Source: Botryllus schlosseri (taxonomy: Eukaryota). From it: a stretch of 64,000 nt of DNA. Below are positions 6,080-34,452 of this stretch, piece by piece (the stretch's first letter is position 1; each line of letters begins with the position of its first letter). The notes beneath the pieces were generated by a model. It was given only the letters and a program-made list of their open reading frames with translations. It searched no databases and had not been told where the DNA came from. Made by a program: the position numbers and the translations under genes. The stretch covers positions 36,830,001-36,894,000 of the forward strand of contig CM119371.1 in the NCBI GenBank assembly GCA_051294905.1, given 5' to 3'.

Positions 6080-8291
6080 CACGCAAGTAGTGTTGTCATC
6101 CTTTTTTCGTGCAGGCCAATCAAATTTCGCCACGTCGCCCTAATTGCCACGCCTATATGACGCCCATTGCCGCACCTATAGGACACCCCTTGCCACATCA
6201 TCCACCCATTGCCGCACCTATAGGACACCCCTTGTCACATCATCCACAATTGCTGCGTCAAAACTTACCTTGGCTAGAATCGACAGATTTTCTATTATGT
6301 GTATTTAGGAATATGTATTTAAATTCCTATTCAGATTATACATAAATGCGAAAACTATGATGTCTATGTAAGGCTATATTCTCCGGATAATATTATTAAT
6401 ATCAAAAATCTACACATCATCACTAATTACTTAATATAAAATGCGATTTTGAGCGCTGCGACTTGATAATATGAGCCCCTACGCTTCTGATGCATGATTT
6501 TTTGTGATAAGGACCTAGGTAACATTCAGAGTCTGCAACGATTGTTTGGATATACATTATACCAATACCCCACTAAACTATAGGCGGTTATATTACTCTA
6601 TTGCTCAGAGATAACTCATCCGTCCATATTTTTAAACTCGATTTTATGTATACAAGTTACTGTCTCTCTGCAGCCTCCCCATTTTACGACTTATTTTCAT
6701 TAGACGCAGGCAAGCGATTCTCCAGTTCGGAGCTACGGAAACAAATCACTCGCATGTGCGCGTTCCGAATAGTCTTGTAGAATTTTCTAAAGTCGTAACA
6801 GCTTAGTAGCATATACGCGAATCCCAAGGTGAAAATAATCGAACGAACTATAGCCGTAGGCGTGCGATTCGCAGGGCTTTATTTATACAAACTCATTCGA
6901 TGCCTGTACGCGAACCCCAGCGTTAAAACGATTAGGTCTAATTAACACGTTCTGAAGCCGAAAATTTAGTCAACATCATTGAGATAGCCATGATTTGAAG
7001 ATGGTGATCGAGTGTGACAATAGCACTCGCCAAGGTTAGACAAACATAACCTTAAACTACTCTCTACTTCACAAAATATAAAGTTATAAAAGTAAGCAGA
7101 TTTTGTCGATATTGCTTTGTGATGATTTTGATGTTGTTCCATAGCGATTGGGAAGATAGGACTCGTAATTCCTTAACTAACTACATAATCCCTAGTAACG
7201 TAGTCAGACGCATAACGGAATTTACGCAAATCGATATTGCTCTGCGATAATTTTGACCACTATGTTTTGATAATAACTTGCTTCCGAGAAATAGATAACA
7301 TTCATTATACGTTAGATGATACTTTTCCTTTATATTCTATTATGTGTATTTAGGGCTAATGCGACATCACTATGTTGGCGACAGGCCTGATTTGAACGCG
7401 CTAATTTTGCAAATTAAACTTATCACCCAACACGAACACTCAATGAAGAGCACCCTAGAGCACCCACATAAATGCTCCACAATTTGTGACGTATAATATA
7501 CTGAGCATATAATAAGCTGACAAAACTGATACTTGAGTACTCCGAAATGTACAAGTACTTTACCTTTACACGACGTTTTTGTAAAATGAATACTAATGGT
7601 ACGCGAATGATCATAGACTAAGCTTGCTTTCAGAGTTGGAAACTAAATGCATATGAAAATTTACCTATGTTTTCCCCTCACGCATCAGATGTAGGCCTAC
7701 TCAAGTGTTTATGAGGCGGCGAATAGTTCGGAGGTTGTTGGTATGCAAGGACGTCACATAGAATTGTGGAGTTTTCTGTAAACTATATTCCAGTGATCTA
7801 TTTTCAATCACTATACTTTTATTAATCTAAACTAAGTACTGTTAGTAGGCAAATCCTAGAAAAGTATCCTCTGATAAAAGTAGGAGTAATTCGTTATCTG
7901 TGAAATAAATAGATAGCGCGCAATATGAGCGGTGTTACGATGACTGACAAATACTTTGAATTAATGCATAGAAGTAGCGATTTCGAACTACGTAAAAAGT
8001 TAGTCGAGCTCACGCATTTTCCATTTTCAAAAGTCGACGTTTTTTGTAAAATGAATACTTATTTTATTAAAAATTAAAAAATAAAGAAAAGAGCGAAAAA
8101 TTACATTTTATCCTGGAACGCAACAAGAAAAATCGTATGAATTTTAACTACTTATTCATGACATACTAATAACTACTTGTACACTTTTTCACATTTTATA
8201 ACACTTTAGTAGTACTTAACAGTTTCAGTTTTAAATAAAATTCGGAATCTAAACTAATCAAAAAAATTCGGTAACCAATTTCGCGTAGGCT

Positions 8292-8621
8292 ATGCATACA
8301 AATGAGGAAAGTTACATCACGGAAGCGAAAGAGGCCAGAGATCTATTCACTCGATACAGCCATCACGCAAAGATCAGTGTCGTGTTCATATGTCAAAATT
8401 TGTTCTATAGGGGTCAAGGCTTTCGGGATATGACCTTGAGCGCGAGCTATATCGTGATATTTAAAAATCCCCGCGATGCGAGTCAAATCAGTTTTCTTTC
8501 ACGTCAAATGTTCCCGGATAAAGCCGGATTCCTTACGGAGGCTTATAAAAAGGCAACTCGAAAACCGTTCTCGTACATACTGGTTGACGTGACGCAAGAG
8601 ACAGACGAAAATTATCGTTGA
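8292..8621 (+). pseudogene. C-terminal fragment of a Polinton/Maverick A32/FtsK-like DNA packaging ATPase
   Basis: The motif string LFTRYSHHAKISVVFICQNLF, SASYIVIFKNPRDASQI..LSRQMFP, EAYKKAT.KPFSYILVD is typical of Polinton ATPases. Walker A and B are absent. The ORF stops at the junction (~8618) with the module shared with E2. Confidence 0.85.
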
Positions 8622-9854
8622 TTTCGTGAGCTTTACTTAAGTTTTATAAATTGACGAAAAAGTAGTCATTTCCGAGTAAGTAAAACGTTCGTATTGTAGG
8701 TTCATTTCTGCTTAATACTATAATTATCATGGAGTTGAAGCAGTCCAATATCAAAAACACCCGAAAGTATTTGTTGCATATAGCTAAAAACCTAATTGAG
8801 TACTCTGAAGAAGTACAAGTGGCACAGTTTGTGGTATTTCTATGACATCGAAATTTAGCTAACCAGAACTTATACTTGAGTACTCCGAAATGTACAAGTA
8901 CTTTACCTTTACACGACGTTTCTGTAAAATGAATACTGATTTTATTAAAAAATAAAAAAGCACGAAAAATTACATTTTATCCCAAACCATCAGAATACTA
9001 AAGTAGCTTATCGCGTATATGGACCTAATACTAAAGTGTTTATGATTTCAGTTCGCTTCAACTTCATGACATTTTCAGTATTAAACAGAAGTATAAGCCT
9101 AGAATGCTAACTTTCTTCGTAAATTGCTACTTCTGCCTTAATTTAACGGATTTATCCGAGATCATTGCTTTACTTAATCTCTCCAAAATGTGCATTATAC
9201 TAGTACGTCACCATCGAATCCCTCTGGCTATAACTACTCGATAGTATAATTGAGCCAAATACTCGAGTACTAATTTTAAAGTAGCTTAGGTATCTAAATG
9301 AACCGACGGTCAGTAAACCATTTCGAAGTGCAAGTACAGGAATATCATAGTTCTTGAACCGTGCTCAATGCTCAATAGACCATTTTTGCTATTTTTCATC
9401 GCCATAAGTCATTCTGGACCGCGTAAACGCATTGTACGTTATAGATGAAACTTATGCAAATCCCCGGAACGCAACAAGAAAAATCGTATAAATTTGTAAA
9501 CTACTTATTCATGACATAATAATAATTCTACTTGTACACATTTTCACATTTTATAACACTTCAAGTAGTACTTGAAAGTTTTGTCAAGTTAACAGGTTAA
9601 AAACTTATACTTGAGCACTACGAAATGTACAAGTACTTTACCTTTACACGACGTTTTGTAAAATGAATACTAATTAAAAAATAAAAAATAAAAAAGAGCG
9701 AAAAATTACATGTTATCCCGGAACGCAACAAGAAAAAATCGTAGGAATTTGTAAACTACTTATTCGGTAAACTACTCTTTACTTCACAAAACAAAGTTAC
9801 AAAAGTAAGCAGATTTATATGAAAACCCGTTAAATAGAAGTAAAAGTAATAACA

Positions 9855-10400
9855 ATGCATCATACCAAATTTGATCGCAATTTCATGATGCAATACCTTT
9901 AAAACTAACGCAGTTCTCTATACACTTTTGCGTAAATCTGTGTTTCGCTAGCGTAGCACGTACCTATACATAGTAAGCTTCAATAACGGAATTACCATGC
10001 TAATAATCAAATCCCCACCCTGAAACTCGGTACGCGGTTGTAAGACATTATGAAAATACAACATACCAAATTTCATCAGACATTTCATGATGTAACACCT
10101 TTAAAACCAACGCAGTTCTATACCGACTTTTGGCTAAATCTGTTATCCATAGCGCAGCACGTACCTATACATAGTCAACTTTAAAACGGAATTACCATGT
10201 TAATAATCGGCTCCCCACCTTGAAACTCGGTACGCAGTTGTAAGACATTATGACAATGTAGCATGTCAAATTTTGTTACGCATTTCATGATTGAACAACT
10301 TGAAAACTAACGCAGTTCTATACCGACATTTGCGTGAAACTGTTTTGCGGGAGCTTAGCGCATACCTATGCGTAGTCAACTTTAATGACGGAATTACAGA
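9855..10400 (+). repeat. ~200-bp unit tandem array (~2.7 copies), mirrored at ~15800-16347
   Basis: TTTCATGAT recurs at 9881, 10083 and 10283, along with AACGGAATTAC and TGAAACTCGGTACGC. Confidence 0.85.
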
Positions 10401-10604
10401 TGTAATTAGGTTTCAACACTTTTACAACGATTCTTCTTGCTTCCTATAACATCGCACTCGAAGCCCTCGTTATTAGGCTATGATCTCAGCCTGAGCTATG
10501 TCTTGAAGCCTACGGGACTTTGCAAATTGTTTCGATTTATTCTATACCCGTTTTAATTTAAGGAAGCCCATTTCACTCAATGTATCGATGCCTACAGTAT
10601 AGAG

Positions 10605-11926
10605 CAGGGGTTCTCAACCCGCGGCCCGCGGGCCGCATGCGGCCCGCAGACGATTCTTTTGCGGCCCGCGACATATTTCAATATAATCTCTACTGGCCCC
10701 ATATTGTTATGGAAGACCGATGAGTCACATTTGTCGAAGAACAGTTGTTGTAACAAAGCCTAGAAGCTTGAAATGATAGCACGATAGTTTCATCTGGAGT
10801 TATACCTATCAAACGTTGCTAGCTTGGTTTCAAGCCCAGCAATCCATATTTCGAATGATTTTTAAAATTTCCGCCGACGTGACAGACGCATTGTTCAAAA
10901 TGGCTTGGAATATCGCTAAACCCAATAATCTGCTAGAGAAGGTATGAGGTATGACTTCAATAACGCTTTAACGTACTGTGCGAATATTCGCTGTTTCCGG
11001 AATTTAGCAGCAAGTCCTATCACCTGACAAATTTCGAAGCTACAGTTGTCACCAGAAGAGTAACAGCGATAAGGTATGACTTGAATAAAGCTTTAACGTA
11101 CTGTGCGAATATTCGGTGTTTCCGGAACTTAGTAGCAAGTCCTGTCATCTGACAAATTTCGAAGCTACAGTTGTCACCAGAAGAGTAACAGCGATCTCAG
11201 TCGATCTTTTATCGCATGTTCTGTAACACGTTGCCACGTAGACTACGTTAGCCGAGCATTGGACCTATCCATCGATGCACACAGTGCAGACACATTGCAT
11301 AGCTAATTATCCAGGTGCTTTTTATCGGAGTGGGCATGGGCATATTTCCAGAGGAAATGCTGACGGGACAAACGTGGGAAGGGGACCAGGACATCAATTT
11401 GACAAAGCTGACTTCTGTAACTATTGGTGTAGGGCTCCAGTCATGGAAGGAAAGGAGAAGAGTTGATTGATTTGCTCGGAAATGACCCCTAACGTCTCGA
11501 TTCTTCTCATATCATATCTGAGAGCTCAAGATGATAATGGCCTCAGTAACGAAAAAGTCACCGTAATTTTATACTTGCTCGCTAACGCATTGAAACAGAA
11601 AGTTCGGTTCTCTGGTGGTGGAAAGGTTTGATGGTTGCATATACTATATACCGACATGGCAATGGATGGAATGTACGCTCCATGAAGGGATTTACTTGCG
11701 CCACTTGAAGATCGATATTCTCACAAAAACAGCAACTGCAAACTTACGAACGCTCTCCATTAATGCTTTAGAATGCATAAGAATGTACTAAATGCCCGAA
11801 TAAGACTGATAAATAGGCCTAAATTTAATAGTAGCCCACAAATACATGGTGATAATGTTCTGCGGCCCGCGGCGTCTTTTAGTGTGAAAATGCGGCCCGT
11901 TATACGAGGGAAGTTGAGAACCCCTG
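10605..11926 (+). mobile_element. hAT (Charlie-like) deletion derivative inserted in the left arm of E1
   Basis: TIR CAGGGGTTCTCAAC / GTTGAGAACCCCTG with a perfect 8-bp TSD GTATAGAG. The empty site is present in the right arm (~15598-15605). Subterminal GCGGCCCGC repeats and an internal ~125-bp tandem duplication. Confidence 0.93.
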
Positions 11927-13254
11927 GTATAGAGTATACTCTACAAAATTTTCTGTTTAATTCTCCCTATGTTAATTTACCATAAGACAGACAATTTGAC
12001 TCCTAAAGTCCGAAATACTTGTTCGCTTGAGCTAAGCCGCAGCGCCCGGAGTGGAATTTTATAGTTCTTGTAAAAAGTTGTTTATACACAATATATGTTT
12101 AAGGTAAGTCCTACGCATTCATGATTTCGTCCGAGTTTGTATTTTAGTAATATATACTAATACCGCGTTTGTAACTTGTGCAAGTAGGCCTACAGGAATA
12201 TCATAGGTAAAGTCTCTGTCTTGCATTTAGTTGCCGGCTCTGAAAGCAAGCAAAGTTTGTGGTATTTGAGCAACAGCGAAATTTGTACACTTCACGCGGG
12301 GCCTACGATACTTACGGCCTAATATGGCACATTACACTTGCTGGATATAAGAGGCCGACACTCCCAACCAGACATCACGACTGACTCAATGATTGCTTGC
12401 GATCTCACTTCTCGATACCAGACGCCTCGCCATACAAGTCTAATAAAGTATTATAACAGACAAAATTAGTTCTTTCAGATGAAACAACCCAATTAAGAGC
12501 CAAGTGATAGCGTCGCAATGTATTTAATCGTTCGGGTAGACTTGAATCGTGATCCGGATCTCGTAACATAGTAAAATCGAGGTATGTAGTTTAATTACTC
12601 ACTCACTACTCTATATGTTGGTGGTGGTCATACCCTGCAAACTTTTTTGCTGCGAACGTAGTGTTTCACCTTACATCAGTTGGTTCAATGTATGTACCGG
12701 GTTGTGAAAACTGTCGCTGTTTTGAGTATGTGTCACAATCAATACTAAATACGAGAATTCGTTACTCGTCGAAACGCCGCAGTCAGACATCGTTAACAGC
12801 GAGACGGAGACTATCAAAATATCGAAAGAAGACGTCTATTCTTTTCTGAAATAATCAAGGTTTTATCAGGACTTCCCTTCATATAAACTCCAGCAGAATC
12901 ACTAATAACCTCTCAAGTTTACTCAATTTACTCTAATTTGATACTCGTGTACCAAATCCCTATTTTCCGCAAGTAGGATAGAGGCTATCGCTCGATACTC
13001 AACGATTCGTAATTTTGCTGGAATTTTGGTACAATTAGGGATTGAAAAGTGACTGATACAAGTGGTTATGTTTGTAGGATATTTACACTTCTACTAAGCG
13101 GTTTTTCAGGAGAAACTACCTACTTTTAGGACTTTATATTTTAAAGTAGTTTAAGGTTACGGTTGTATCACCTTGAGAAATGCTATGATCAAAAACTGCT
13201 TTTGCTAAACTCTTACACATTCACTAAACTTCTACACTGAATCTTGAGCTCCAG

Positions 13255-14285
13255 GGCATTGTGATTATGCAGCATACCAAATTGCGTCACACATTTACAC
13301 TTCATGATGGAATAACTGTAAAACTAACCCAGTTCTATAGCAACTTTTGCCTACATCTGTTTTCGGTAGCGTGTACATGTACATATACATAGTCAGCTTT
13401 AATAACAGAATTACCATGCTAATATGTAACTCCTCACCTTGAAACTTGGTACGTAGTTGTAGGACATTGTTATTATGCAGCATACGAAATTTTCTTACGC
13501 ATTTCATAATGGAACAACTTTAAAACTAACGCGGCTCTATATCGACATTTTGCGTGCATCTGTTTTGTGGGGGCGTATAGTACGTACCCATACATAGCCA
13601 ACTTTAATAACGGAATTACCATGCTTAACATTGAATCCCAACTCTAAACTTGATACGTAGTTGTAGGACATTATGGCAATGCACCATGCTAGATTTCATC
13701 CCACATCTAATGATGGAACACCTTTGAAACTATCGCAGTCGAATACCGACTTTTACGCATATCTGTTTTTCGTGAACACAGCATATGCCAATACATAGTC
13801 AATTTTAATAACAGAATTAGTATGCTAAACATTAAATTCTCACCTTGAACGTTGGTACGCAGTTGTAGGACATAATAAGAATGCACCATACCAAATTTCG
13901 TCAGACATTTCATGATGTAACACCTTTAAAACCAACGCAGTTCTATACAGACTTTTGGCTAAGTCTGTTTTTCCGTAGCGTATAGCACGTACCTATGCAT
14001 AGTCAACTTTAATAACGGAATTACCATGTTAATAATCGACTCCCAACCTTGAAACTCGCTACACCGTTGTAAGACATTATGACAATGCACCATGTCAAAT
14101 TTTGTTACGCATTTCATGATTGAACAACTTCAAAACTAATCCAGTTCCATGCCGACTTTTGCGGGGGCGTAGCACGTATATGCATACTCAACTTTAATAA
14201 CGGAATTACCGAGCTTAACATTGAATGCGCAACTTGAAGATTGGTTCACAGGTGTAGGACATTATGACAATGGAACATACCACTG
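13255..14285 (+). repeat. ~200-bp unit tandem array (~5 diverged copies)
   Basis: Same unit, with a period of about 200-204 bp. Confidence 0.85.
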
Positions 14286-14929
14286 CGCTAACTTTCAGAA
14301 TTGTTAAGTATAGTACTCGCACTTTGTGAGAATACCCAAGTAGCTTCTTTGCCTACATGCACCAAATACTCTCAAGTCCTTATGATATTGGAGTACATCA
14401 ACTTCATGATAGCTAGAGTATTGAACAGAAATAGACCCAGAGTACTAACGTTTTACTTACTCGGAAATGACTACTTCTACCTTATTTTAAAGGATACCTC
14501 GTTCGAAGCGAAATTTATGTGGTTTTGGATAATATCCAAGATGTAGGCTCACTTTGAAGGGTACTTCCTAAAACTCAAATATTGCGCAAAAGTACAATTA
14601 GGGATCTAAAAGTAACTAATATAGATGGGTATTTTCGTAGATTACTTACCCTCTACTCAAGAGGTTTTTCAGGTGGAACTACCTACTTTTATGACTGTGT
14701 ATGTCAAAGTAGTTTGAGCTTACGTTTATATCACCTTGACAAGTGACATTATCACACATGAAAATGATATTATCGCGTAATACCAGAAGTTAACACACGT
14801 CAATGTGTTTCGGAAGTCACTAGAAATTGGTTACTAAGAAAAGTATTTGTGTACACAATAGCGGAGAGAATATTTAAAATGTAGTAAGCAGGCCGATGGG
14901 TATTCATTGAGTTGTATAAGCATAAAAAA

Positions 14930-14999
14930 CATTCCCGCGCGCGTCTTAGGATTAGGTGGTAGGGTTAGGCAGGGTTGGGTTTAGGAGCGCGCGGGAATG
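14930..14999. other. Symmetry-axis hairpin of E1: 13-bp GC stem plus 44-nt telomere-like G-rich loop
   Basis: CATTCCCGCGCGC / GTCTTAGGATTAGGTGGTAGGGTTAGGCAGGGTTGGGTTTAGGA / GCGCGCGGGAATG. Confidence 0.85.
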
Positions 15000-17580
15000 A
15001 ACGATTAAATACATTGCGACGATGTCACTTGGCTCTTAATTGGGTTGTTTCATCTGAAAGAACTAATTTTGTCTGTTATAATACTTTATTAGACTTGTAT
15101 GGCGAGGCGTCTGGTATCGAGAAGTGAGATCGCAAGCAATCATTGAGTCAGTCGTGATGTCTGGTTGGGAGTGTCGGCCTCTTATATCCAGCAAGTGTAA
15201 TGTGCCATATTAGGCCGTAAGTATCGTAGGCCCCGCGTGAAGTGTACAAATTTCGCTGTTGCTCAAATACCACAAACTTTGCTTGCTTTCAGAGCCGGCA
15301 ACTAAATGCAAGACAGAGACTTTACCTATGATATTCCTGTAGGCCTACTTGCACAAGTTACAAACGCGGTATTAGTATATATTACTAAAATACAAACTCG
15401 GACGAAATCATGAATGCGTAGGACTTACCTTAAACATATATTGTGTATAAACAACTTTTTACAAGAACTATAAAATTCCACTCCGGGCGCTGCGGCTTAG
15501 CTCAAGCGAACAAGTATTTCGGACTTTAGGAGTCAAATTGTCTGTCTTATGGTAAATTAACATAGGGAGAATTAAACAGAAAATTTTTTAGAGTATACTC
15601 TATACTGTAGGCATCGATACATTGAGTGAAATGGGCTTCCTTAAATTAAAACGGGTATAGAATAAATCGAAACAATTTGCAAAGTCCCGTAGGCTTCAAG
15701 ACATAGCTCAGGCTGAGATCATAGCCTAATAACGAGGGCTTCGAGTGCGATGTTATAGGAAGCAAGAAGAATCGTTGTAAAAGTGTTGAAACCTAATTAC
15801 ATCTGTAATTCCGTCATTAAAGTTGACTACGCATAGGTATGCGCTAAGCTCCCGCAAAACAGTTTCACGCAAATGTCGGTATAGAACTGCGTTAGTTTTC
15901 AAGTTGTTCAATCATGAAATGCGTAACAAAATTTAACATGCTACATTGTCATAATGTCTTACAACTGCGTACCGACTTTCAAGGTGGGGAGCCGATTATT
16001 AACATGGTAATTCCGTTTTAAAGTTGACTATGTATAGGTACGTGCTGCGCTATGGATAACAGATTTAGCCAAAAGTCGGTATAGAACTGCGTTGGTTTTA
16101 AAGGTGTTACATCATGAAATGTCTGATGAAATTTGGTATGTTGTATTTTCATAATGTCCTACAACCGCGTACCGAGTTTCAGGGTGGGGATTTGATTATT
16201 AGCATGGTAATTCCGTTATTGAAGCTTACTATGTATAGGTACGTGCTACGCTAGCGAAACACAGATTTACGCAAAAGTGTATAGAGAACTGCGTTAGTTT
16301 TAAAGGTATTGCATCATGAAATTGCGATCAAATTTGGTATGATGCATTGTTATTACTTTTACTTCTATTTAACGGGTTTTCATATAAATCTGCTTACTTT
16401 TGTAACTTTGTTTTGTGAAGTAAAGAGTAGTTTACCGAATAAGTAGTTTACAAATTCCTACGATTTTTTCTTGTTGCGTTCCGGGATAACATGTAATTTT
16501 TCGCTCTTTTTTATTTTTTATTTTTTAATTAGTATTCATTTTACAAAACGTCGTGTAAAGGTAAAGTACTTGTACATTTCGTAGTGCTCAAGTATAAGTT
16601 TTTAACCTGTTAACTTGACAAAACTTTCAAGTACTACTTGAAGTGTTATAAAATGTGAAAATGTGTACAAGTAGAATTATTATTATGTCATGAATAAGTA
16701 GTTTACAAATTTATACGATTTTTCTTGTTGCGTTCCGGGGATTTGCATAAGTTTCATCTATAACGTACAATGCGTTTACGCGGTCCAGAATGACTTATGG
16801 CGATGAAAAATAGCAAAAATGGTCTATTGAGCATTGAGCACGGTTCAAGAACTATGATATTCCTGTACTTGCACTTCGAAATGGTTTACTGACCGTCGGT
16901 TCATTTAGATACCTAAGCTACTTTAAAATTAGTACTCGAGTATTTGGCTCAATTATACTATCGAGTAGTTATAGCCAGAGGGATTCGATGGTGACGTACT
17001 AGTATAATGCACATTTTGGAGAGATTAAGTAAAGCAATGATCTCGGATAAATCCGTTAAATTAAGGCAGAAGTAGCAATTTACGAAGAAAGTTAGCATTC
17101 TAGGCTTATACTTCTGTTTAATACTGAAAATGTCATGAAGTTGAAGCGAACTGAAATCATAAACACTTTAGTATTAGGTCCATATACGCGATAAGCTACT
17201 TTAGTATTCTGATGGTTTGGGATAAAATGTAATTTTTCGTGCTTTTTTATTTTTTAATAAAATCAGTATTCATTTTACAGAAACGTCGTGTAAAGGTAAA
17301 GTACTTGTACATTTCGGAGTACTCAAGTATAAGTTCTGGTTAGCTAAATTTCGATGTCATAGAAATACCACAAACTGTGCCACTTGTACTTCTTCAGAGT
17401 ACTCAATTAGGTTTTTAGCTATATGCAACAAATACTTTCGGGTGTTTTTGATATTGGACTGCTTCAACTCCATGATAATTATAGTATTAAGCAGAAATGA
17501 ACCTACAATACGAACGTTTTACTTACTCGGAAATGACTACTTTTACGTCAATTTATAAAACTTAAGTAAAGCTCACGAAA

Positions 17581-17910
17581 TCAACGATAATTTTCGTCTG
17601 TCTCTTGCGTCACGTCAACCAGTATGTACGAGAACGGTTTTCGAGTTGCCTTTTTATAAGCCTCCGTAAGGAATCCGGCTTTATCCGGGAACATTTGACG
17701 TGAAAGAAAACTGATTTGACTCGCATCGCGGGGATTTTTAAATATCACGATATAGCTCGCGCTCAAGGTCATATCCCGAAAGCCTTGACCCCTATAGAAC
17801 AAATTTTGACATATGAACACGACACTGATCTTTGCGTGATGGCTGTATCGAGTGAATAGATCTCTGGCCTCTTTCGCTTCCGTGATGTAACTTTCCTCAT
17901 TTGTATGCAT
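17581..17910 (-). pseudogene. Mirror copy of the Polinton packaging ATPase fragment
   Basis: Translation is identical to 8292-8621, in the right arm of E1. Confidence 0.85.
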
Positions 17911-20074
17911 AGCCTACGCGAAATTGGTTACCGAATTTTTTTGATTAGTTTAGATTCCGAATTTTATTTAAAACTGAAACTGTTAAGTACTACTAAAGTG
18001 TTATAAAATGTGAAAAAGTGTACAAGTAGTTATTAGTATGTCATGAATAAGTAGTTAAAATTCATACGATTTTTCTTGTTGCGTTCCAGGATAAAATGTA
18101 ATTTTTCGCTCTTTTCTTTATTTTTTAATTTTTAATAAAATAAGTATTCATTTTACAAAAAACGTCGACTTTTGAAAATGGAAAATGCGTGAGCTCGACT
18201 AACTTTTTACGTAGTTCGAAATCGCTACTTCTATGCATTAATTCAAAGTATTTGTCAGTCATCGTAACACCGCTCATATTGCGCGCTATCTATTTATTTC
18301 ACAGATAACGAATTACTCCTACTTTTATCAGAGGATACTTTTCTAGGATTTGCCTACTAACAGTACTTAGTTTAGATTAATAAAAGTATAGTGATTGAAA
18401 ATAGATCACTGGAATATAGTTTACAGAAAACTCCACAATTCTATGTGACGTCCTTGCATACCAACAACCTCCGAACTATTCGCCGCCTCATAAACACTTG
18501 AGTAGGCCTACATCTGATGCGTGAGGGGAAAACATAGGTAAATTTTCATATGCATTTAGTTTCCAACTCTGAAAGCAAGCTTAGTCTATGATCATTCGCG
18601 TACCATTAGTATTCATTTTACAAAAACGTCGTGTAAAGGTAAAGTACTTGTACATTTCGGAGTACTCAAGTATCAGTTTTGTCAGCTTATTATATGCTCA
18701 GTATATTATACGTCACAAATTGTGGAGCATTTATGTGGGTGCTCTAGGGTGCTCTTCATTGAGTGTTCGTGTTGGGTGATAAGTTTAATTTGCAAAATTA
18801 GCGCGTTCAAATCAGGCCTGTCGCCAACATAGTGATGTCGCATTAGCCCTAAATACACATAATAGAATATAAAGGAAAAGTATCACCTAACGTATAATGA
18901 ATGTTATCTATTTCTCGGAAGCAAGTTATTATCAAAACATAGTGGTCAAAATTATCGCAGAGCAATATCGATTTGCGTAAATTCCGTTATGCGTCTGACT
19001 ACGTTACTAGGGATCATGTAGTTAGTTAAGGAATTACGAGTCCTATCTTCCCAATCGCTATGGAACAACATCAAAATCATCACAAAGCAATATCGACAAA
19101 ATCTGCTTACTTTTATAACTTTATATTTTGTGAAGTAGAGAGTAGTTTAAGGTTATGTTTGTCTAACCTTAGCGAGTGCTATTGTCACACTCGATCACCA
19201 TCTTCAAATCATGGCTATCTCAATGATGTTGACTAAATTTTCGGCTTCAGAACGTGTTAATTAGACCTAATCGTTTTAACGCTGGGGTTCGCGTACAGGC
19301 ATCGATAGAGTTTGTATAAATAAAGCCCTGCGAATCGCACGCCTACGGCTATAGTTCGTTCGATTATTTTCACCTTGGGATTCGCGTATATGCTACTAAG
19401 CTGTTACGACTTTAGAAAATTCTACAAGACTATTCGGAACGCGCACATGCGAGTGATTTGTTTCCGTAGCTCCGAACTGGAGAATCGCTTGCCTGCGTCT
19501 AATGAAAATAAGTCGTAAAATGGGGAGGCTGCAGAGAGACAGTAACTTGTATACATAAAATCGAGTTTAAAAATATGGACGGATGAGTTATCTCTGAGCA
19601 ATAGAGTAATATAACCGCCTATAGTTTAGTGGGGTATTGGTATAATGTATATCCAAACAATCGTTGCAGACTCTGAATGTTACCTAGGTCCTTATCACAA
19701 AAAATCATTCATCAGAAGCGTAGGGGCTCATATTATCAAGTCGCAGCGCTCAAAATCGCATTTTATATTAAGTAATTAGTGATGATGTGTAGAATTTTGA
19801 TATTAATAATATTATCCGGAGAATATAGCCTTACATAGACATCATAGTTTTCGCATTTATGTATAATCTGAATAGGAATTTAAATACATAGTCCTAAATA
19901 CACATAATAGAAAATCTGTCGATTCTAGCCAAGGTAAGTTTTGACGCAGCAATTGTGGATGATGTAACAAGGGGTGTCCTATAGGTGCGGCAATGGGCGT
20001 CATATAGGCGTGGCAATTAGGGCGACGTGGCGAAATTTGATTGGCCTGCACGAAAAAAGGATGACAACACTACT

Positions 20075-20142
20075 CACGCACCCGTCGTTAGGGGATTTGC
20101 AGTATCCGTGATTATTTGCCTCGCAATTCGGTACGGCGGACA
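20075..20142 (-). CDS. Exon 2, 5' part (VSAVPNCEANNHGYCKSPNDGCV), interrupted by E1
   Basis: Acceptor TTTTTTCAG|TG. The frame continues up to the TSD (TGCGTG = Cys-Val). Confidence 0.8.
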
Positions 20143-22699: not shown

Positions 22700-22908
22700 G
22701 ACAATTCACCCTAATCTGAGATCGCGTTCGTCAGACATATTTTGTAGAGCTGAGTTGGATAGAATTGTGGTGTGCGCGTTCTGTATGTCATACATGTCCG
22801 TAAAATCGTAGCATATACTACTGTAATCTTAAAAATTAATTCATTTTCATGGGTGAGGCTCGGGTCGCGAGATGCCACAAAAACTCAGATTTTGGTGGTA
22901 GTCTAAAA
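22700..22908. repeat. Dispersed repeat with an inverted copy at ~63706-63910
   Basis: GAGATGCCACAAAAACTCAGATTTTGGTGGTAGTCTAAAA and its flanks match the reverse complement near 63710. Confidence 0.75.
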
Positions 22909-24183: not shown

Positions 24184-25788
24184 TTATATGTCTCTTCCGG
24201 TCAATATAACATAGTCGATTAACGGTTGAATCGTTCTCTGATTAACTATCAGAGAAAATACTGTATAAGGTGTTCGATACTTCTGTACGTCTCTGCTCAG
24301 ATGGGTCCGTTCTACGGAATATTTATTACAGAATAGCACGAAATGGTCCACCGTTTCCGGCACACCACATTCCGCACAGACTCCACTTTCGTGTAAGCCG
24401 AGTTTGTGCAGGTGTTTGTTTAGCCTGCAATGACCGGTGTACAATCGGGTCAAGATCGAATTCTCTCTTCGGTTTCGATTGGTTTGCTTATGAAAAGTTA
24501 CTTGGAGCGACTCCATCTCCTGATTGCCGAGTTCGAGTATTTGTTGAGTGGTATTACGTCGTATGTCCCTGTAATATTCTGCTACGATGGCTTGACATTC
24601 TTTTGCTGTAAGAGGGACCATGTTTGGATGATCGACGGGTTCCCTGGATGCTTCCTTTGCCAAATTATCGGCGGTTTCGTTATATGCAAGTCCTTTGTGT
24701 GCGGGAATCCAAACAAACGTGACTGTTGATCCTCTTGCCGATAAATGGATGGTTTGTAAGTGAATGTCCCTGATTAAGTCATTGTCTTTAGATCGGTTGT
24801 CGATTGCTTTTATTGAGCTACTACTGTCCGAGAAAATTGCTAATTGTATGTTAGGTTCGCAATTGTTACAAGCCCATGCTAGACTGTCTCTGATAGCCGT
24901 CAGCTCCGCCGTAAATATACTCACAAGTCTGTTCAGTGATTTTTTATACGAAAATTCAAAACTGGGTACATAGAATGCTGATCCACATCCTGCGTCAGTT
25001 TTCGAGCCGTCTGTATAAATAGCACAATAGTTTTTGTATCGCTCTACTATTACTTCCCTGCATTCGATATTCATAGCTTGGGGATTATTGAGTTCGCGTA
25101 ATTTCATTTCTAGATCAAGGTCACAAGTGCTATTTACCGACGTCCAAGGGGGAATTTGTGAATATTGTATGCATTCTATTGCTATGTCCTTTAAGCACCC
25201 AACCTTTGAAACCATATTAAAGGTTTCAAATTGTATAGAGTCTGGAAATATTTCGTGCCAAGAGTCCTGGACGATCGAAGTACAGGGGTGATCTCTTTGT
25301 GATCTTATGATACACCGGTAATTTGCACACGCCTGTTTGTAACGCATTTCTACGGGCGGCTCGTTGCAAAGAAATTGTAGTGCATGTATCGGAGTGCTCC
25401 TCATTGCTCCGCTGCAGAGTCTCAACGCGTTATTTTGTAGCGTCTGAAGTCCTTTGGAGACATATTTCGGTGAAGCGAAATATGCTTCGATGCCATATTC
25501 GATGATCGAGCGTATCAGTGCCCTATACAGTACTAACATGCATTCTTTGGAGGCCCCCCATGTAGTTCCACTCAGACAACGAAGAATATTCATCCTGGAT
25601 GTGCATTTTTTGACCACAGATTGTAGGTGTGGTTTATATGAGAGTCTCGAATCAAATATTATGCCGAGATATGTGTATTCTTTTAGGAAGGGTATGGGAT
25701 CACTTCCAGACAAAATCTCAAGGGAAGGTAACTTGCGACGTCTCGTGAACAAAATGGCGGCAGATTTTGCGCTATTTATCTTCATGCC
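24184..25788 (-). pseudogene. LINE ORF2 C-terminal part: RT thumb, RNase H and Zn knuckle
   Basis: Motifs YLGIIFD, IYTDGSK, FTAELTAI, SDSSS, WIPAHKGLAYNETADNLAK and CAECGVPETVDHFVLFC. Same frame as the RT across the single stop (WCLK*GMKIN). Confidence 0.95.
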
Positions 25789-26813
25789 TCATTTCAAGCA
25801 CCAATTTGTGATCGCCGTGAGAGTCGTCTGTGTATCATTGCGTACCGTGTCGATGTTTAGCCCGGACTCGTAAAAACAAATGTCATCAGCGTATATGTTA
25901 AGTTTTGAGGCGATTTTATCAGGAAGGTCGTTCATCATCACAGCGAATAATAATGGCGAGAGAATACTTCCCTGGGCAATTCCATTGTCAGTATGGAAGA
26001 TTTCGGACAGGGTTGTACCCACGCGCACTCGAAATGTTCTCTGTTTCAGGAATGAGTGTATCCATCGTATTGCATTTCCTGAGATACCCATTTTGCGCAA
26101 TTTAAATAAGATAGCTCCTTGCCACGCCATGTCGTAGGCTTTCTCTAAATCGAGGAAGACCGATATTGTGTATCTCTTATTTGCGATAGCTTTGTAGACT
26201 TCGTCGTGTAGCGATAAGATGCAGTCTCGGGTACCGCGTCCTTTTCGAAACCCACTCTGTGCAGGGTGGAGGAGATTGTTACTTTCCAGATACCAAGTCA
26301 ACCGATTGCTAATCATACGCTCAAAGATTTTACATAAATCGCTTGTGAGCGAGATTGGTCTGTAACTGCTAACTTCGGAAGCGGGTTTTGCTTTTTTGTG
26401 AATCGGAACTACCACTGCGTGCTTCCAAGAAGGAGGGCATATGCCATCGCTCCAGGACTTGTTGATTATTCGGAGATATTCAATTGCGGTTCGTTGGGAC
26501 ACGTTTCGCATCATCTGGTGGCATATTCCATCATGGCCGGGCGACGCACCTTTTCTTTGACGGATTACCGTCATCAGTTCGTCCATTGTATACGGCGCGT
26601 TTATTCCAGTGTTCGACCCTATTTCCTGTAACAGCGGGGTCAGCTTATCAGCTTCAAACAAGTTGCGTCTAGTTTGCTCTACTTGTCCAAGGTTTTGGTT
26701 CCCACATACCGATGCGAAGTGCTTTCCAAGTGCGTTTGCTATCTGTTTTTCGTCAGTGAAAACGAGATTGTCGCTTTTCAGCGCAGTAATCACATTCCAG
26801 GATTGACTACCCC
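25789..26813 (-). pseudogene. LINE ORF2 middle part: reverse transcriptase
   Basis: Motifs SPGHDG, YRPISLTS, QSGFR, FLDLEKAYD, GIAQGSILSP and YADD. In frame with the EN part once E2 is removed. Ends at a premature TGA (likely TGG). Confidence 0.95.
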
Positions 26814-28290
26814 AGTAGTGAGGGTTGATCAAATTGGTACGCACCAATCACAGAACGCCACGTCATCCTAATTGCCACGCCTATATGACGCCCATTGTCA
26901 CGCCTACAGGATGCCCATTGCCACGTCACCTACCACTGCCACATCGTGTGTATTTATGAGCAAATTTCATTGTTTTGTGAATTTCAATACCGGTTTTCCA
27001 TGTATATTTAGCAATATGTATTGAATAACTTGAAATGTATCATCACTAATTAATTAATATAAAATGCGATTTTAAGCGCTGCGACTTGAAAATATTAATA
27101 TAATAACTTACTTTTTTGGATATAAATAACATTCAGATTACACATAAATTTCTAAAACTATGACGTCAATAGAATACTATATTTGCCAGATATTCACAGA
27201 TAACACTCATCAACGTTGAACTAGGCGCGGGGTTCTATGATGATATATCAAAATTCTACACATCATCACTAATTAATTAATTCATATAAAATGCGATTTT
27301 GAGCGCAGACAGATCGCGGTTTCGATTGCCGAGGTCTCCGCATTTCATGACCTTATATGAGCGCACACTACAACTGAATTCATTCCAATACCTGCAAATT
27401 TACTTTGCATGTCGAGTATAAGGATAATTTAATCAGCACTAAACGCCAACGGACTAGCCGTAGGCGCACAATTCTCGGCGTTACAATTAAACAAACTTTT
27501 CGCGGCAGGTACGCGATTCCCGACGTTATAATGATAGTGACAAATTAGCCGCATGAAAGCGAGTCTAATGAATATAACGACAGACAACAAGTTAGTTGAA
27601 AAGTAAAACTAATCGTGACCGATGCAAGACGACGTAAAACAGCGCTTTCGCTCGATTCTTGTAGTGACCACATTTCATACGATTCAGTCCTTTTCATGTC
27701 ACTAGAATAAGGGTGATTAAACCAACAGTGAAACGCCGCCGACGTCTTATAACGTAATAATGTAAGCTGCGTCGGGTGCTGCTATAATGTTAGGAGCGAA
27801 TATAGTAGAAAGTCCACGTCTGGACACCTATAAGCAAGTGTGCATACTACCGTAGTAAACGCATAACAGAATTCATGCAAAAGTCTATATTGCTTTGTGA
27901 TGATTTTGATGTTGTTCCATACCGATTGGGAAGATAGGACTCCTAATTTCCTTATCCCGGAACGTAGCAAGAAAAATCGTATAAATTTTGTAAAGTAGAT
28001 AGAAAACTACACTATTCCGATGCAGTAAAGACTCTTACATGCTGGATTTTGTGCAGTATATACTAATTTTACATTGCGGAGTATTCCATAAACGTTAATC
28101 CAGTGATCCTCCTTCTATTTTCAATCACGATCCGCTTATTATTCTAGGCTTCGAACCCCACACCCAGTACATTTTATGGGGATTAATATTTTTAGATTAA
28201 ATATAGCGTATCGAGACTTCGTGAAACTTACTCGGAAATAGTTATTTCTACCCTAATTTAATAGATTTCTCAGATATCGTAGCAACGGAA

Positions 28291-28372
28291 CTGGCTTCAG
28301 CGAGCGGTTAAGGCGTTGGACTTAAGTTTCAATGAACAAGTGTTCACATAGGTTCGAATCCCACACCCACTA
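28291..28372 (+). tRNA. Degenerate tRNA-Leu(UAA)-like sequence inside E2
   Basis: CGAGCGGTTAAGGCG D-arm, TTGGA-CTTAAGT-TTCAA anticodon arm, long variable arm GAACA..TGTTC and GGTTCGAATCC T-arm. The acceptor stem does not pair, so it is probably a pseudogene. Confidence 0.7.
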
Positions 28373-29696
28373 CGTTTACGAGAATTAATATTTTTAGATT
28401 CAAATTTAGCGTATTGAGTACTTTTTCTGCCTTTTTCAGCGCATTAGAGACGTTTACACTATTGATTTCATGAGCTTTACTTAAGTTTTATAAATTAACG
28501 TAAAAGTAGTCATTTCCGAGTAAGTAAAACGTTCGTATTGTAGGTTCATTTCTGCTTAATACTATAATTATCATGGAGTTGAAGCAGTCCAATATCAAAA
28601 ACACCCGAAAGTATTTGTTGCATATAGCTAAAATCCTAATTGAGTACTCTGAAGAAGTACAAGTAGCACAGTTTGTGGTATTTCTATGACATCGAAATTT
28701 AGCTAACCAGAACTTATACTTGAGTAGTCCGAAATGTACAAGTACTTTACCTTTACACGACGTTTCTGTAAAATGAATACTGATTTTATTAAAAATAAAA
28801 AAGCACGAAAAATTACATTTTATCCCAAACCATCAGAATACTAAAGTAGCTTATCGCGTATATGGAGCTAATACTAAAGTGTTTATGATTTCAGTTCGCT
28901 TCAACTTCATGACATTTTCAGTATTAAACAGAAGTATAGGCCTAGAATGCTAACTTTCTTCGTAAATTGCTACTTCTACCTTAATTTAACGGATTTATCT
29001 GAGATCATTGCTTTACTTAATCTCTCCAAAATGTGCATTATACTAGTACGTCACCATCGAATCCCTCTGGCTATAACTACCCGATAGTATAATTGAGCCA
29101 AATACTCGAGTACTAATTTTAAAGTAGCTTAGGTATCTAAATGAACCGACGGTCAGTAAACCATTTCGAAGTGCAAGTACAGGAATATCATAGTTCTTGA
29201 ACCGTGCTCAATGCTCAATAGACCATTTTTGCTATTTTTCATCGCCATAAGTCATTCTGGACCGCGTAAACGCATTGTACGTTATAGATGAAACTTATGC
29301 AAATCCCCGGAACGCAACAAGAAAAATCGTATGAATTTGTAAACTACTTATTCATGACATAATAATAATTCTACTTGTACACATTTTCACATTTTATAAC
29401 ACTTTAAGTAGTACTTGAAAGTTTTGTCAAGTTAACAGGTTAAAAACTTATACTTGAGCACTACGAAATGTACAAGTACTTTACCTTTACACGACGTTTT
29501 GTAAAATGAATACTAATTAAAAAATAAAAAATAAAAAAGAGCGAAAAATTACATGTTATCCCGGAACGCAACAAGAAAAATCGTAGGAATTTGTAAACTA
29601 CTTATTCGGTAAACTACTCTTTCCTTCACAAAACAAAGTTACAAAAGTAAGCAGATTTATATGAAAACCCGTTAAATAGAAGTAAAAGTAATAACA

Positions 29697-30245
29697 ATGC
29701 ATCATACCAAATTTGATCGCAATTTCATGATGCAATACCTTTAAAACTAACGCAGTTCTCTATACACTTTTGCGTAAATCTGTGTTTCGCTAGCGTAGCA
29801 CGTACCTATACATAGTAAGCTTCAATAACGGAATTACCATGCTAATAATCAAATCCCCCACCCTGAAACTCGGTACGCGGTTGTAGGACATTATGAAAAT
29901 ACAACATACCAAATTTCATCAGACATTTCATGATGTAACACCTTTAAAACCAACGCAGTTCTATACCGACTTTTGGCTAAATCTGTTATCCATAGCGCAG
30001 CACGTACCTATACATAGTCAACTTTAAAACGGAATTACCATGTTAATAATCGGCTCCCCACCTCGAAACTCGGTACGCAGTTGTAAGACATTATGACAAT
30101 GTACCATGTCAAATTTTGTTACGCATTTCATGATTGAACAACTTGAAAACTAACGCAGTTCTATACCGACATTTGCGTGAAACTGTTTTGCGGGAGCTTA
30201 GCGCATACCTATGCGTAGTCAACTTTAATGACGGAATTACAGATG
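29697..30245 (+). repeat. ~200-bp unit array in E2, mirrored at ~38596-39144
   Basis: Near-identical to 9855-10400. Confidence 0.85.
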
Positions 30246-32719
30246 TAATTAGGTTTCAACACTTTTACAACGATTCTTCTTGCTTCCTATAACATCACAC
30301 TCGAAGCCCTCGTTATTAGGCTATGATCTCAGCCTGAGCTATGTCTTGAAGCCTACGGACAATTTCATGATGCAATACCTTTAAAACTAACGCAGTTCTC
30401 TACACACTGATTAATTCTCCCTATGTTAATTTACCATAAGACAGACAATTTGACTCCTAAAGTCCGAAATACTTGTTCGCTTGAGCTAAGCCGCAGCGCC
30501 TGGAGTGGAATTTTATAGTTCTTGTAAAAAGTTGTTTATACACAATATATGTTTAAGGTAAGTCCTACGCATTCATGATTTCGTCCGAGTTTGTATTTTA
30601 GTAATATATACTAATACCGCGTTTGTAACTTGTGCAAGTAGGCCTACAGGAATATCATAGGTAAAGTCTCTGTCTTGCATTTAGTTGCCGGCTCTGAAAG
30701 CAAGCAAAGTTTGTGGTATTTGCGCAACATCGAAATTTGTACACTTCACGCGGGGCCTACGATACTTACGGCCTAATATGGCACATTACACTTGCTGGAT
30801 ATAAGAGGCCGACACTCCCAACCAGACATCACGACTGACTCAATGATTGCTTGCGATCTCACTTCTCGATACCAGACGCCTCGCCATACAAGTCTAATAA
30901 AGTATTATAACAGACAAAATTAGTTCTTTCAGATGAAACAACCCAATTAAGAGCCAAGTGACAGCGTCGCAATGTATTTAATCGTTCAGGTAGACTTGAA
31001 TCGTGATCCGGATCTCGTAACATAGTAAAATCGAGGTATGTAGTTTAATTACTCACTCACTACTCTATATGTTGGTGGTGGTCATACCCTGCAAACTTTT
31101 TTGCTGCGAACGTAGTGTTTCACCTTACATCAGTTGGTTCAATGTATGTACCGGGTTGTGAAAACTGTCGCTGTTTTGACTATGTGTCACAATCAATACT
31201 AAATACGAGAATTCGTTACTCGTCGAAACGCCGCAGTCAGACATCGTTAACAGCGATTCCGTGTATGGCAATCTTGAGTTCAATTGCGGTTTTGTGATGT
31301 TAACCAAGCGGCTGTGTTTCTGCGGTGTGAAGACTGAATTCGTGTTGTTTCCCTGCAAGAGTGCGATGTCTATTTCACACCTAGAGCAATTATAAAACGC
31401 ATCTTCGAAACTTTTGGTCTAGTTCATCCGCTTGCATTTCGAAACGGACCATCACGACAAGACTCTAACCCACCACATCCGAGGTTTCAGTTGATCATAT
31501 CGAAGAATATCATGTCCATCCGTGTTACCACCCACAGATTTCGCCATCCTCACACGGTAGTGCTAAGACACAGACAAGATGCGGTGGTGGAAATATTGAA
31601 AATGAGAAAGCAGACCTTGGTGTCATTTGATTTGGATTTTACACCCGATGAACCCACCATTCGAACTGCGCATTGGGATGAGGATTCTATCATTGATGTC
31701 GAGGGAAAGGAGATGTACAGATTTGTTGGTGTCGTGAATATTCAACGAAAGTCGGGGTATATGCTTGTGCATGGTTCGCGTATTTGACTGTGAAGATATC
31801 GCTATACATAACGTGCTGTTCACCGTATCGATAGCACCAACGAATATCCGTGAAAGGGTTGTAATCTCGGTGAAATAGTGTGCGACACATTTTTCCACAA
31901 TTCGAATGCATGTCGGTTCATACTAAGACCATGTTACGGTCAAATATGTGTGTTTTTCTGTCTCCAAGTCAGCTACCCCTCACATTGAATGTACAGAGTC
32001 GGTGCATGTATGAGACTTCAGAACATGAATTTGTAATCCATGATGCTTGTAATGCCGGCCATGATGTTATCCATGATGTATGTAATGTCACACACCTCGT
32101 TTACGCGAATACTTGGTATCTATGAACAATCGTGAAGTATACTGGATGTGTAATGTCTTGTTATTTTCATGGAAACACGAGGGTGTAACATGTTTGAATA
32201 TTGTTCATTGGTTTGTCGATTCAGAGTTAAAATACGTATTGACCAATAAAGAGTGACACAATATAGTAAACATGTGTGAGAAAACTCACAAGTAACCCGG
32301 ATTTGTTAGCGCGACGGGGACATAAATTCAACCATTATCCGTGTACCAAGCAGTTACCAAAGTCATGGAGGTTGCTAATTTCAACATATTGACTCTGTGG
32401 GAGGCTAAAGCACGAACCGGGACACACACAGACACACACACCAGGACACACAATATCCGTCGATTTCCAAAGCATACATTTCGATATACAAGAGCATATT
32501 GTTATTTCATGTGGTTAACCGTTGATATAGATGCGATGCGATCGACGCGGGTATACTCTGAAACCGGTTGTCCGTTTATATGAGAAAAGATGCTGTGAAG
32601 GACTTTAAAAAGCGGCAATTGAGCATAGTTGTGTCGAGTTACCGAATGATTTTTTCCTTACATCAAAACAACTAGAATGTGTAACTACATTAAACACGTA
32701 TCTAAATGAGCTCCAGGGC

Positions 32720-33735
32720 TTTGTGATTATGCAGCATACCAAATTGCATCACACATTTACATTTCATGATGGAATAACTTTAAAACTAACGCAGTTCTAT
32801 AGCAACTTTTGCCTACATCTGTTTCGCTAGCGTGTACATGTACATATACATAGTCAGCTTTAATACCAGAATTACCATGCTAATATGTGAATCCTCACCT
32901 TGAAACTTGGTACGTAGTTGTAGGACATTGTGATTATGCAGCATACGAAATTTCCTCACGCATTTCATAATGGAACAACTTTAAAACTAACGCGGCTCTA
33001 CATCGACATTTTGCGTACATCTGTTTTGTGAGGGGCGTATAGTACGTACCCAACTTTAATAACGGAATTACCATGCTTAACATTGAATCCCAACTCTAAA
33101 CTTGATACGTAGTTGTAGGAGATTATGGCAATGCACCATGCTAGATTTCATCATCACACATCTAATGATGGAACACCTTTGAAACTATCGCAGTCGAATA
33201 CCGACTTTTACGCATATCTGCTTTTCGTGAACACAGCATATACCCATACATAGTCAATTTTAATACCAGAATTAGTATGCTAAACATCAAATTCTCGCCT
33301 TGAACGTTGGTACGCAGTTGTAGGACATAATAAGAATGAACCATACCAAATTTCGTCACACATTTCATGATGTAACACCTTTAAAACCAACGCAGTTCTA
33401 TACAGACTTTTGGTTAAGTCTGTTTTTCCGTAGCGTAGCACGTACCTATGCATAGTCAACTTTAATAACGGAATTACCATGTTAATAATCGACTCCCAAC
33501 CTTGAAACTCGCTACACCGTTGTAAGACATTATGAAAATGCACCATGTCAAATTTTGTTACGCATTTCATGATTGAACAACTTTAAAACTAATCCAGTTC
33601 CATGCCGACTTTTGCGGGGGCGTAGCACGTACCTATGCATACTCAACTTTAATAACGGAATTACCGAGCTTAACATTGAATGCGCAACTTGAAGATCGGT
33701 TCACAGGTGTAGGACATTATGACAATGGAACATAC
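32720..33735 (+). repeat. ~200-bp unit array in E2 (~5 copies), mirrored at ~35106-36121
   Basis: Near-identical to 13255-14285. Confidence 0.85.
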
Positions 33736-34387
33736 CACTGCGCTAACTTTCAGAATTGTTAAGTATAGTACTCGCACTTTGTGAGAATACCCAAGTAGGT
33801 TTTTTGCCTACATGCACCAAATACTCTCAAGTCCTTATGATATTGGAGTACATCAACTTCATGATAGCTAGAGTATTGAACAGAAATGGACCTAGAGTAC
33901 TAACGTTTTACTTACTCGGAAATGACTACTTCTACCTTATTTTAAAGGATACCTCGTTCGAAGCGAAATTTATGTGGTTTTGGATAATATCCAAGATGTT
34001 GGCTCGCTTTGAAGGGTACTTCCTAAAACTCAAATATTGCGCAAAAGTACAATTAGGGATCTAAAAGTAACTAATATAGATGGTTATTTCCGTAGATAAC
34101 TTACCCTCTACTCAAGAGGTTTTTCAGGTGGAACTACCTACTTTTAGGACTGTGTATGTCAAAGTAGTTTGAGCTTACGTTTATATCACCTTGACAAGTG
34201 ACATTATCAGACATGAAAATGATATTATCACGTAATACCAGAAGTTAACACACGTCAATGTGTTTCGTAATTCAAGAGAAATTGGTTACTAAGAGAAGTA
34301 TATTCTTGTGTACACAATAGCGGAGAGAATATTTAAAATGTAGTAAGCAGGCCGATGGGTATTCATTGAGTTGTATAAGCATAAAAA

Positions 34388-34452
34388 CATTCCCGCGCGC
34401 TTCTAAACCCTGCCTAACCCTACCACCTAATCCTAAGACGCACGCGGGAATG
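34388..34452. other. Symmetry axis of E2: same GC stem plus 39-nt telomere-like loop (C-rich strand on +)
   Basis: Loop 34401-34439 TTCTAAACCCTGCCTAACCCTACCACCTAATCCTAAGAC is the reverse complement of the E1 loop minus one GGGTT, with one substitution. Confidence 0.9.

Follow-up and report, generated by a model that had tools for sequence, protein, structure and literature searches.

Palindromic Polinton-ended elements of Botryllus schlosseri and a possible length optimum near 15 kb

Two palindromic elements, E1 and E2, lie close together in a 64,000-nucleotide stretch of the Botryllus schlosseri genome (assembly GCA_051294905.1, contig CM119371.1, positions 36,830,001 to 36,894,000), referred to hereafter as the window and numbered from its first letter. 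Both have the ends of Polinton/Maverick elements, and they contain long stretches that are unlike in sequence, yet their halves are nearly equal in length. Why should elements of unlike content be so similar in size? An earlier note on this DNA suggested that length may be under selection for encapsidation, with the interior acting as stuffer. From E1, E2 and their relatives in the genome we propose, with a probability of about 0.45, that the two are young copies in a Polinton-ended, inverted-dimer family of some 300 members held near 15 kb, likeliest by a packaging window.

Replacements that nearly cancel in E1 and E2

E2 (26814..42027; strand is not applicable to either palindrome) is a complete palindrome of 15,214 bp whose arms are 99.7% complementary. 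A perfect 6-bp target-site duplication (TSD), TACCCC, flanks it at 26808-26813 and 42028-42033, and its arms meet at a 31-nt loop (34405..34435) that lies between GC-rich stems and is conserved in the family. E1 (6086..20074) is a palindromic, gene-less, Polinton-ended element of 13,989 bp, also within a perfect 6-bp TSD (CACGCA, 6080-6085 and 20075-20080). The termini of the two are alike, with AGTAGTG at the start and CACTACT at the end. None of the open reading frames (ORFs) of at least 110 aa in E1 or E2 had a Pfam match; these scans revealed neither the Polinton genes for protein-primed family B polymerase and integrase nor genes for capsid, packaging ATPase or protease.

From terminus to centre, E2 measures 7,607 bp. 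The left half of E1, from 6086 to the centre near 14965, is 8,880 bp long, and this figure includes two additions. One is a nested, non-autonomous transposon of 1,322 bp (10605..11926, + strand) with the terminal inverted repeat (TIR) CAGGGGTTCTCAAC and the 8-bp TSD GTATAGAG (10597-10604 and 11927-11934). Judged by its short TIRs and 8-bp TSD it is a later, hAT-like insertion; it is present in the left arm only, and the corresponding site in the right arm is empty. The other is a tandem duplication of 42 bp among the subterminal repeats (6163..6246, + strand; period 42, 2.0 copies, 97%), which is likewise confined to the left arm, where the gap is 119 against 77 on the right. Subtracting both additions reduces the left half to 7,508-7,516 bp. 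The earlier note had also subtracted both, reading the insert as a later hAT element, and had put the halves at about 7.5 kb (E1, corrected) and 7.6 kb (E2), and the measurements bear it out.

The right arm of E1 (15000..20074) is shortened. It pairs with 6086-12533, except for the hAT-like insert and the 42-bp duplication, and leaves 12534-14998 unpaired. The conserved centre of E1 (14929..14999) comprises the stem ACATTCCCGCGCGC, the loop and the first part of the second stem; the sequence continues past the loop for 17-19 nt into that stem and then jumps to the partner of 12533. This break at about 15000, past the loop, indicates that about 2.4 kb was deleted from the right arm beside the centre. 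E1 would formerly have been about 15.0 kb long, against 13,989 bp today. A total near 15 kb, as claimed earlier for both elements, is thus found in E2 as it stands and, for E1, only in its probable former state.

The left halves of E1 and E2 were aligned, and the window was compared with itself for inverted repeats. Three blocks are shared: 8618..10515 (98.9% to E2 28462-30358, and containing a 200-bp tandem array), 11953..12802 (99.2% to E2 30407-31256) and 13245..14946 (96% to E2 32707-34404, with 200-bp tandem repeats within). Two larger stretches are not shared. The outer module of E1 (6086..8617, 2,532 bp, mirrored in the E1 right arm) is 884 bp longer than that of E2 (26814..28461, 1,648 bp), and homology between the two is limited to small patches and the ~130 nt at the start (82%). 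The inner module of E1 (12803..13244, 442 bp) is 1,008 bp shorter than that of E2 (31257..32706, 1,450 bp). A further small unshared patch between the blocks measures 115 bp in E1 and 48 bp in E2. The outer surplus and the inner deficit of E1, both correctly described in the earlier note, nearly cancel. The inner block of E2 had 0% coverage across the whole of E1, so the difference is one of replacement rather than relocation. Taken alone, the cancellation in this pair is suggestive only (sign-permutation P = 0.031).

The same modules recur in other copies of the family. The outer module of E2 is 99.5% identical in the copy C16_7360k and partly present in several others, and the inner module of E1 is also found in four copies (C12_22142k, at 99.1%, C5_25844k, C5_14798k and C4_12912k). 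The inner module of E2 is a high-copy module; among 40 matches scored of 2,507 candidates, many copies had its first 983 nt in both arms at 98-99%, and only E2 had its full length. Tandem arrays with a unit of 200-204 bp are present twice per arm in E1, E2 and most family members (9854-10397, 13297-14162, 29696-30240 and 32759-33616, with their mirror images). The centre loop of E1 is flipped relative to that of E2. This was considered as a sign of hairpin replication and dropped, because a palindrome inserted in either orientation looks identical.

The palindrome family and its lengths

Motif searches over the 495-Mb genome of B. schlosseri found a 30-nt subterminal motif at 69 forward and 72 reverse sites (control 0/0), and a looser pattern, CCAATC-N7-GCCACGTC, at 313 forward and 314 reverse sites (reversed control 0/0). 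The family that includes E1 and E2 numbers roughly 300 elements, which are non-autonomous and for the most part lack genes. Sixteen whole and seven partial copies were fetched in addition to E1 and E2. All 18 whole copies have a 6-bp TSD (14 perfect, 4 agreeing at 5/6), and AGTAGT stands at both termini in 17 of them, with one end of the remaining copy reading AGTATT. The 6-bp TSD and the inverted ends with the (AGT)2 motif are features by which membership in the Polinton/Maverick group is recognized.

Long ORFs in the other copies belong to nested long interspersed nuclear elements (LINEs) and Penelope-like elements. No Polinton genes, and hence no autonomous elements, were found among the end-pairs in any copy read, and the left 8.6 kb of the 17.3-kb copy C1_24487k is free of a long ORF. 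A genome-wide search with the Pfam profiles PF03175 and PF00770 gave zero matches, as did its positive controls, and is uninformative. An intact 183-aa ORF of the Bcl-2 family (Pfam E 1.7e-21) was present in 6 of the 25 copies searched, among them C17_1260k, C8, C10 and C3_15376k, and is lacking in E1 and E2. It sits in each arm and was located at 5209-5757 in L001 and at 2383-2931 in L008; three other copies hold fragments only.

A common centre, in which a loop of 31-35 nt separates the stem ACATTCCCGCGCGC from the reverse stem, was seen in 18 of 24 copies inspected. The presence of one centre motif across copies argues that the palindrome arose once and was then inherited. Identity of the two arms within a copy is 98.9-99.96% in 16 of 18 copies, the exceptions being C5_14798k (98.4-99.2%) and C4_7247k (95.3%). 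The copies are mosaics in which blocks of 97-99% identity alternate with unrelated sequence in many combinations, and one copy holds both the E1-type and the E2-type inner modules. Degenerate CCCTAA-like, telomere-like words were noticed in the centre loop (34391-34449, 14929-14999 and other copies). True telomere repeats at the palindrome centre were rejected, because none of the copies contains a perfect TTAGGG dimer.

Long-read libraries are known to produce near-perfect palindromes as artefacts, and if the family consisted of fold-back chimeras of long reads, its lengths would be meaningless. We find this scarcely credible. There are about 300 copies, and their arms differ by 0.04-1%; nested transposons occupy a single arm, the matching site in the other being empty; and both E1 and E2 have 6-bp TSDs. 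E2 also splits the reading frame of a LINE. It lies in the ORF2 region between the endonuclease and reverse-transcriptase domains; the downstream part of the LINE (24184..26813, - strand; reverse transcriptase and RNase H) precedes it in the window, and the upstream part (42034..44343, - strand; AP endonuclease domain) follows.

For the length distribution, end-pairs were listed over contig 1 and most of contig 2, resulting in 42 plus/minus pairs and 14 unpaired hits; coordinates were the sole basis for assessing 13 of the initial 31 pairs and nearly all of the 42 listed. Raw lengths ranged from 3,981 to 34,258 bp, with a median of 15,842 bp and an interquartile range of 14.2-20.0 kb. Eleven of the 42 pairs fell within 14,700-15,938 bp, and these included at least 6 subterminal variants. 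The pile-up in this 1.25-kb interval had a P of 0.009 under a lognormal or normal null and 0.0002 under a uniform null. According to the earlier note, a broad and continuous spread of lengths would speak against selection on length. The data fall cleanly on neither side, with tails from 4.0 to 34 kb and about a quarter of the pairs close to 15 kb.

In the copies read, both tails are largely of secondary origin, the upper one through insertion. Asymmetric segments of long copies bear TIRs and TSDs of their own and are nested transposons. Without its two inserts (1,909 and 923 bp) a copy of 18,046 bp measures 15,214 bp, and on the same basis copies of 20,709 and 21,959 bp measure about 14.0 and 15.2 kb. 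A copy of 19,285 bp with a LINE inside comes to about 14.6 kb, and the copy of 34,258 bp is a 16.4-kb palindrome with a nested Polinton. Apart from this 16.4-kb palindrome, the long copies read come back to 14.0-15.3 kb when inserts are removed. One transposon of 5.5-5.9 kb, with the ends CCCAGCAAACAC...GTGTTTGCTGGG, was inserted independently in two family copies (C1_3645k, 11284-17170, and C12_22142k, 1248-6736, in element coordinates).

Short copies include deletions in one arm beside the centre, which recur in at least five copies: about 2.4 kb in E1, about 5.4 kb in C2_31075k and less in C17_1260k, C4_12912k and C12_16992k. Long palindromes are unstable, and revision by a break at the centre fits deletions adjacent to it. 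One arm of C17_1260k matches the long arm of C2_31075k colinearly at 98-99%. The junction of an 8.4-kb copy was unique among 40 matches scored of 431 candidates, suggesting that this short form has not multiplied.

Family copies were also seen to cluster. The gap between E1 and E2 is 6.7 kb and other pairs lie 23-39 kb apart, while about two close pairs are expected by chance genome-wide. The clustering may reflect insertion into repeat-rich DNA.

Common descent and the common length

Half-lengths were examined in 16 clean halves from centre-bearing copies. Five of the 18 whole copies (C1_12448k, C5_14798k, C7_5595k, C4_7247k and C14_13648k) were left out as rearranged and centre-less. The 16 halves measured 6,466-8,040 bp, with a mean of 7,483 bp, a standard deviation (SD) of 412 bp and a coefficient of variation (CV) of 5.5%.

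Such uniformity might be simple inheritance. If the family descended from one ancestor of about 15 kb, and if its copies were young and had suffered few large insertions or deletions, lengths would agree, and the cancellation in E1 and E2 would be a chance result noticed post hoc. The single conserved centre and the arms that differ by less than 1% in most copies favor this explanation. Sequence content does not. Between pairs of halves, the median length of colinear sequence in common is 2,074 nt (range 296-5,651; blocks of at least 80% identity), and for copies of equal length it can be as low as 296-1,500 nt in a half of 7.5 kb. In sensitive blastn comparisons of unlike pairs of about 15 kb, colinear overlap was 9-21% and overlap at any position or orientation was 27-49%, with 0 in shuffled controls. 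Since copies of the same length share so little sequence, descent alone does not explain the common length. Relocation of modules as a trivial cause is ruled out by the same any-position overlap and by the 0% coverage of the E2 inner block in E1. The overlap of 27-49% implies many replacements on the kilobase scale between copies, and unconstrained replacements should spread lengths beyond an SD of 0.4 kb.

A slot test was used to compare the variation of parts with that of the whole. Halves were split at shared anchors, and the squared total difference of each pair was divided by the sum of squared slot differences. The ratio had a mean of 0.14 and a median of 0.03 over 105-119 pairs, where independent slots are expected to give about 1; the copies compared are not independent of one another. 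An exact sign permutation on seven disjoint pairs, picked automatically by shared length, gave a Fisher P of 0.0053 with the arms as first chosen (CV 5.4%, 15 halves).

Several points weigh against a held length. When the other arm was used for three asymmetric copies, the Fisher P rose to 0.037 and the CV to 7.0%, which, together with the P of 0.031 for E1 and E2 and the tails from 4 to 34 kb, also favors inheritance and coincidence. The slot test can be inflated, as anchors at shifted positions necessarily produce plus and minus differences in pairs. The halves number only 16 and were drawn from centre-bearing copies. Pairs of 3,981, 4,882, 5,204 and 9,064 bp exist, known from their coordinates, and one clean copy is 12.9 kb long. 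On balance, the case that the family as a whole has a length optimum near 15 kb is fair but not conclusive, and we consider inheritance with coincidence unlikely. The suggestion that length may be under selection and the interior acts as stuffer draws support from the mode near 15 kb, the unlike content of the copies and the cancellation between slots; it does not account for the tails and the pairs of 4-9 kb.

A possible packaging window and a helper-type Polinton

If the length is held, what holds it? Under the packaging reading, the elements would be inverted dimers, with two units of about 7.5 kb joined at a single conserved centre, and would be copied by the protein-primed polymerase of a helper Polinton. 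Their linear DNA would be packaged into the helper capsid and integrated by the helper integrase, and genomes far outside about 75-105% of the helper length would be lost, as in adenovirus. The non-coding interior would serve as exchangeable filler, with modules swapped among family members, and the near-cancelling replacements in E1 and E2 would be one instance of a family-wide optimum. After integration lengths would drift, nested transposons adding to them and centre-adjacent deletions, such as that in the right arm of E1, subtracting. The capsid is the best available mechanism for holding length, a role that we wholly infer.

A possible helper type is the Polinton nested in the 34,258-bp copy, which is 17,829 bp long and has the TSD AATGTT. 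With its 240-nt end as query, at least 18 helper-type end-pairs were found among 40 matches scored of 148 candidates. Seven of 18 measured 17,829-17,882 bp and ten ranged from 14,480 bp to about 17.4 kb; one of 32,305 bp presumably holds a nested element. Two sets of helper-type twins have equal internal offsets and lengths (C14:22577299-22594667 with C2:36469771-36487139, and C15:7712557-7728523 with C2:1350046-1366012) and may be segmental duplications or uncollapsed haplotypes. The mode of the palindromes corresponds to about 85% of the 17.8-kb Polinton length, and copies as inserted to about 72-92%. In the comparison with helper length contemplated in the earlier note, both classes show a mode; the palindromes lie at about 85% of 17.83-17.88 kb and not at 100%, which has to be counted with the difficulties listed above.

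The ends add to these difficulties. In the palindromes, AGTAGT is kept, positions 7-30 are hypervariable, and CCAATC at +31, GCCACGTC and CTAATTGCCACGCC follow (viewed at 6086-6170, 19990-20074, 26814-26900 and 41940-42027). A CCAAT word near the end of an element recalls the NFI site in adenovirus origins. A 23-nt subterminal repeat (ATTGCCACGCCTATAGGACGCCC-like; ATTGCCAC) is present in 2-4 copies at both ends (6143-6247, 19968-20017, 26871-26925 and 41916-41970) and is a candidate cis-signal. The helper-type end shares with the ends of these presumed satellites only AGTAGT and CCAATC at +31. Over 60 positions, 29-41 identities were counted against 34.7 ± 2.5 for shuffled sequence, and only 1 of 23 comparisons with this one Polinton end exceeded every shuffle, so that the Polinton end resembles satellite ends no better than shuffled sequence does. 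The 17.8-kb Polinton has none of the 23-nt repeats in its first 290 nt. With one helper-type end compared, no helper with satellite-like subterminal sequence was found, and the 17,829-bp Polinton was itself gauged by its ends and length, not its genes.

The lack of a matching helper leaves more room for a real optimum that owes nothing to a capsid. A bias in copying or dimer formation, the efficiency of integration or loss of longer palindromes by the host might each favor one length, and the evidence for an optimum applies equally to these; the centre-adjacent deletions show the host acting on palindromes. Host deletion, on the other hand, yields tails and not a sharp mode common to unlike sequences. 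Helper-type elements share a sharp mode, as expected of a packaged genome, and we know of no step in the replication or integration of protein-primed elements that measures total length. We therefore consider an optimum without a capsid quite unlikely and retain the packaging window as the preferred explanation.

Known systems offer partial parallels. The palindromes resemble Polinton/Maverick elements in their AGTAGT...ACTACT termini, 6-bp TSD, inverted ends and 15-18 kb size class. They differ in being non-coding mosaics without polymerase, integrase or capsid genes (with the Bcl-2-like ORF in 6/25) and in having arms of about 7.5 kb, compared with Maverick TIRs of 46-1,447 bp (PMC8097293). 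The same paper describes vertebrate Mavericks as ending in an (AGT)2//(ACT)2 motif and gives the length of intact ones as 16,862 ± 1,678 bp, a variation of about 10% that its authors read as a constrained genome size; Polinton/Maverick particles, it states, have not been observed to date (PMC8097293).

Also close in form are helper-dependent adenovirus genomes, which are also gene-less, keep terminal cis-elements only, carry filler DNA and can form an inverted dimer of a half-size unit. PMC4189039 reports that adenovirus genomes of less than 75% or more than 105% of wild-type length rearrange and that 15-kb helper-dependent genomes were packaged as direct and inverted dimers. Those are laboratory constructs with proven virions, whereas the palindromes are germ-line copies for which packaging, helper and replication are all inferred.

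Drosophila Foldback elements likewise have very long inverted arms, partly of tandem repeats, and little or no coding capacity. Their TSD is 9 bp, and the palindromes, with a 6-bp TSD and AGTAGT ends, do not have Foldback ends; to our knowledge, Foldback elements have neither a conserved centre nor a narrow total length. Size-constrained satellites are known elsewhere, for example the half-size defective DNAs of geminiviruses, which are dependent replicons held by the capsid at a fraction of helper length. These differ from the palindromes in being circular single-stranded DNA, with neither a palindromic dimer nor transposon-like integration. A search of titles and abstracts found no paper on palindromic or dimeric Polinton/Maverick satellites. 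We tentatively suggest, as a possibility that falls short of even odds, that these ~300 palindromes arose in nature as inverted dimers of a defective Polinton of half size and are held by the capsid at about 85% of helper length while their interiors recombine among co-replicating copies.

The case for virions of animal Polintons/Mavericks still turns chiefly on gene content. Coding gives a gene-less, dependent element no reason to keep a fixed size, and a sharp optimum across unlike sequences would therefore be independent genomic evidence of a physical container. If the packaging reading is true, 15-kb palindromes and 17.8-kb Polintons are both expected in nuclease-protected DNA. The palindromic form would also be explained, as a half-size genome would reach packageable size by dimerizing, in a wild counterpart of the dimerized helper-dependent adenovirus genomes. 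The family would then be a genomic footprint of Polinton virions forming and bringing DNA into a chordate germ line.

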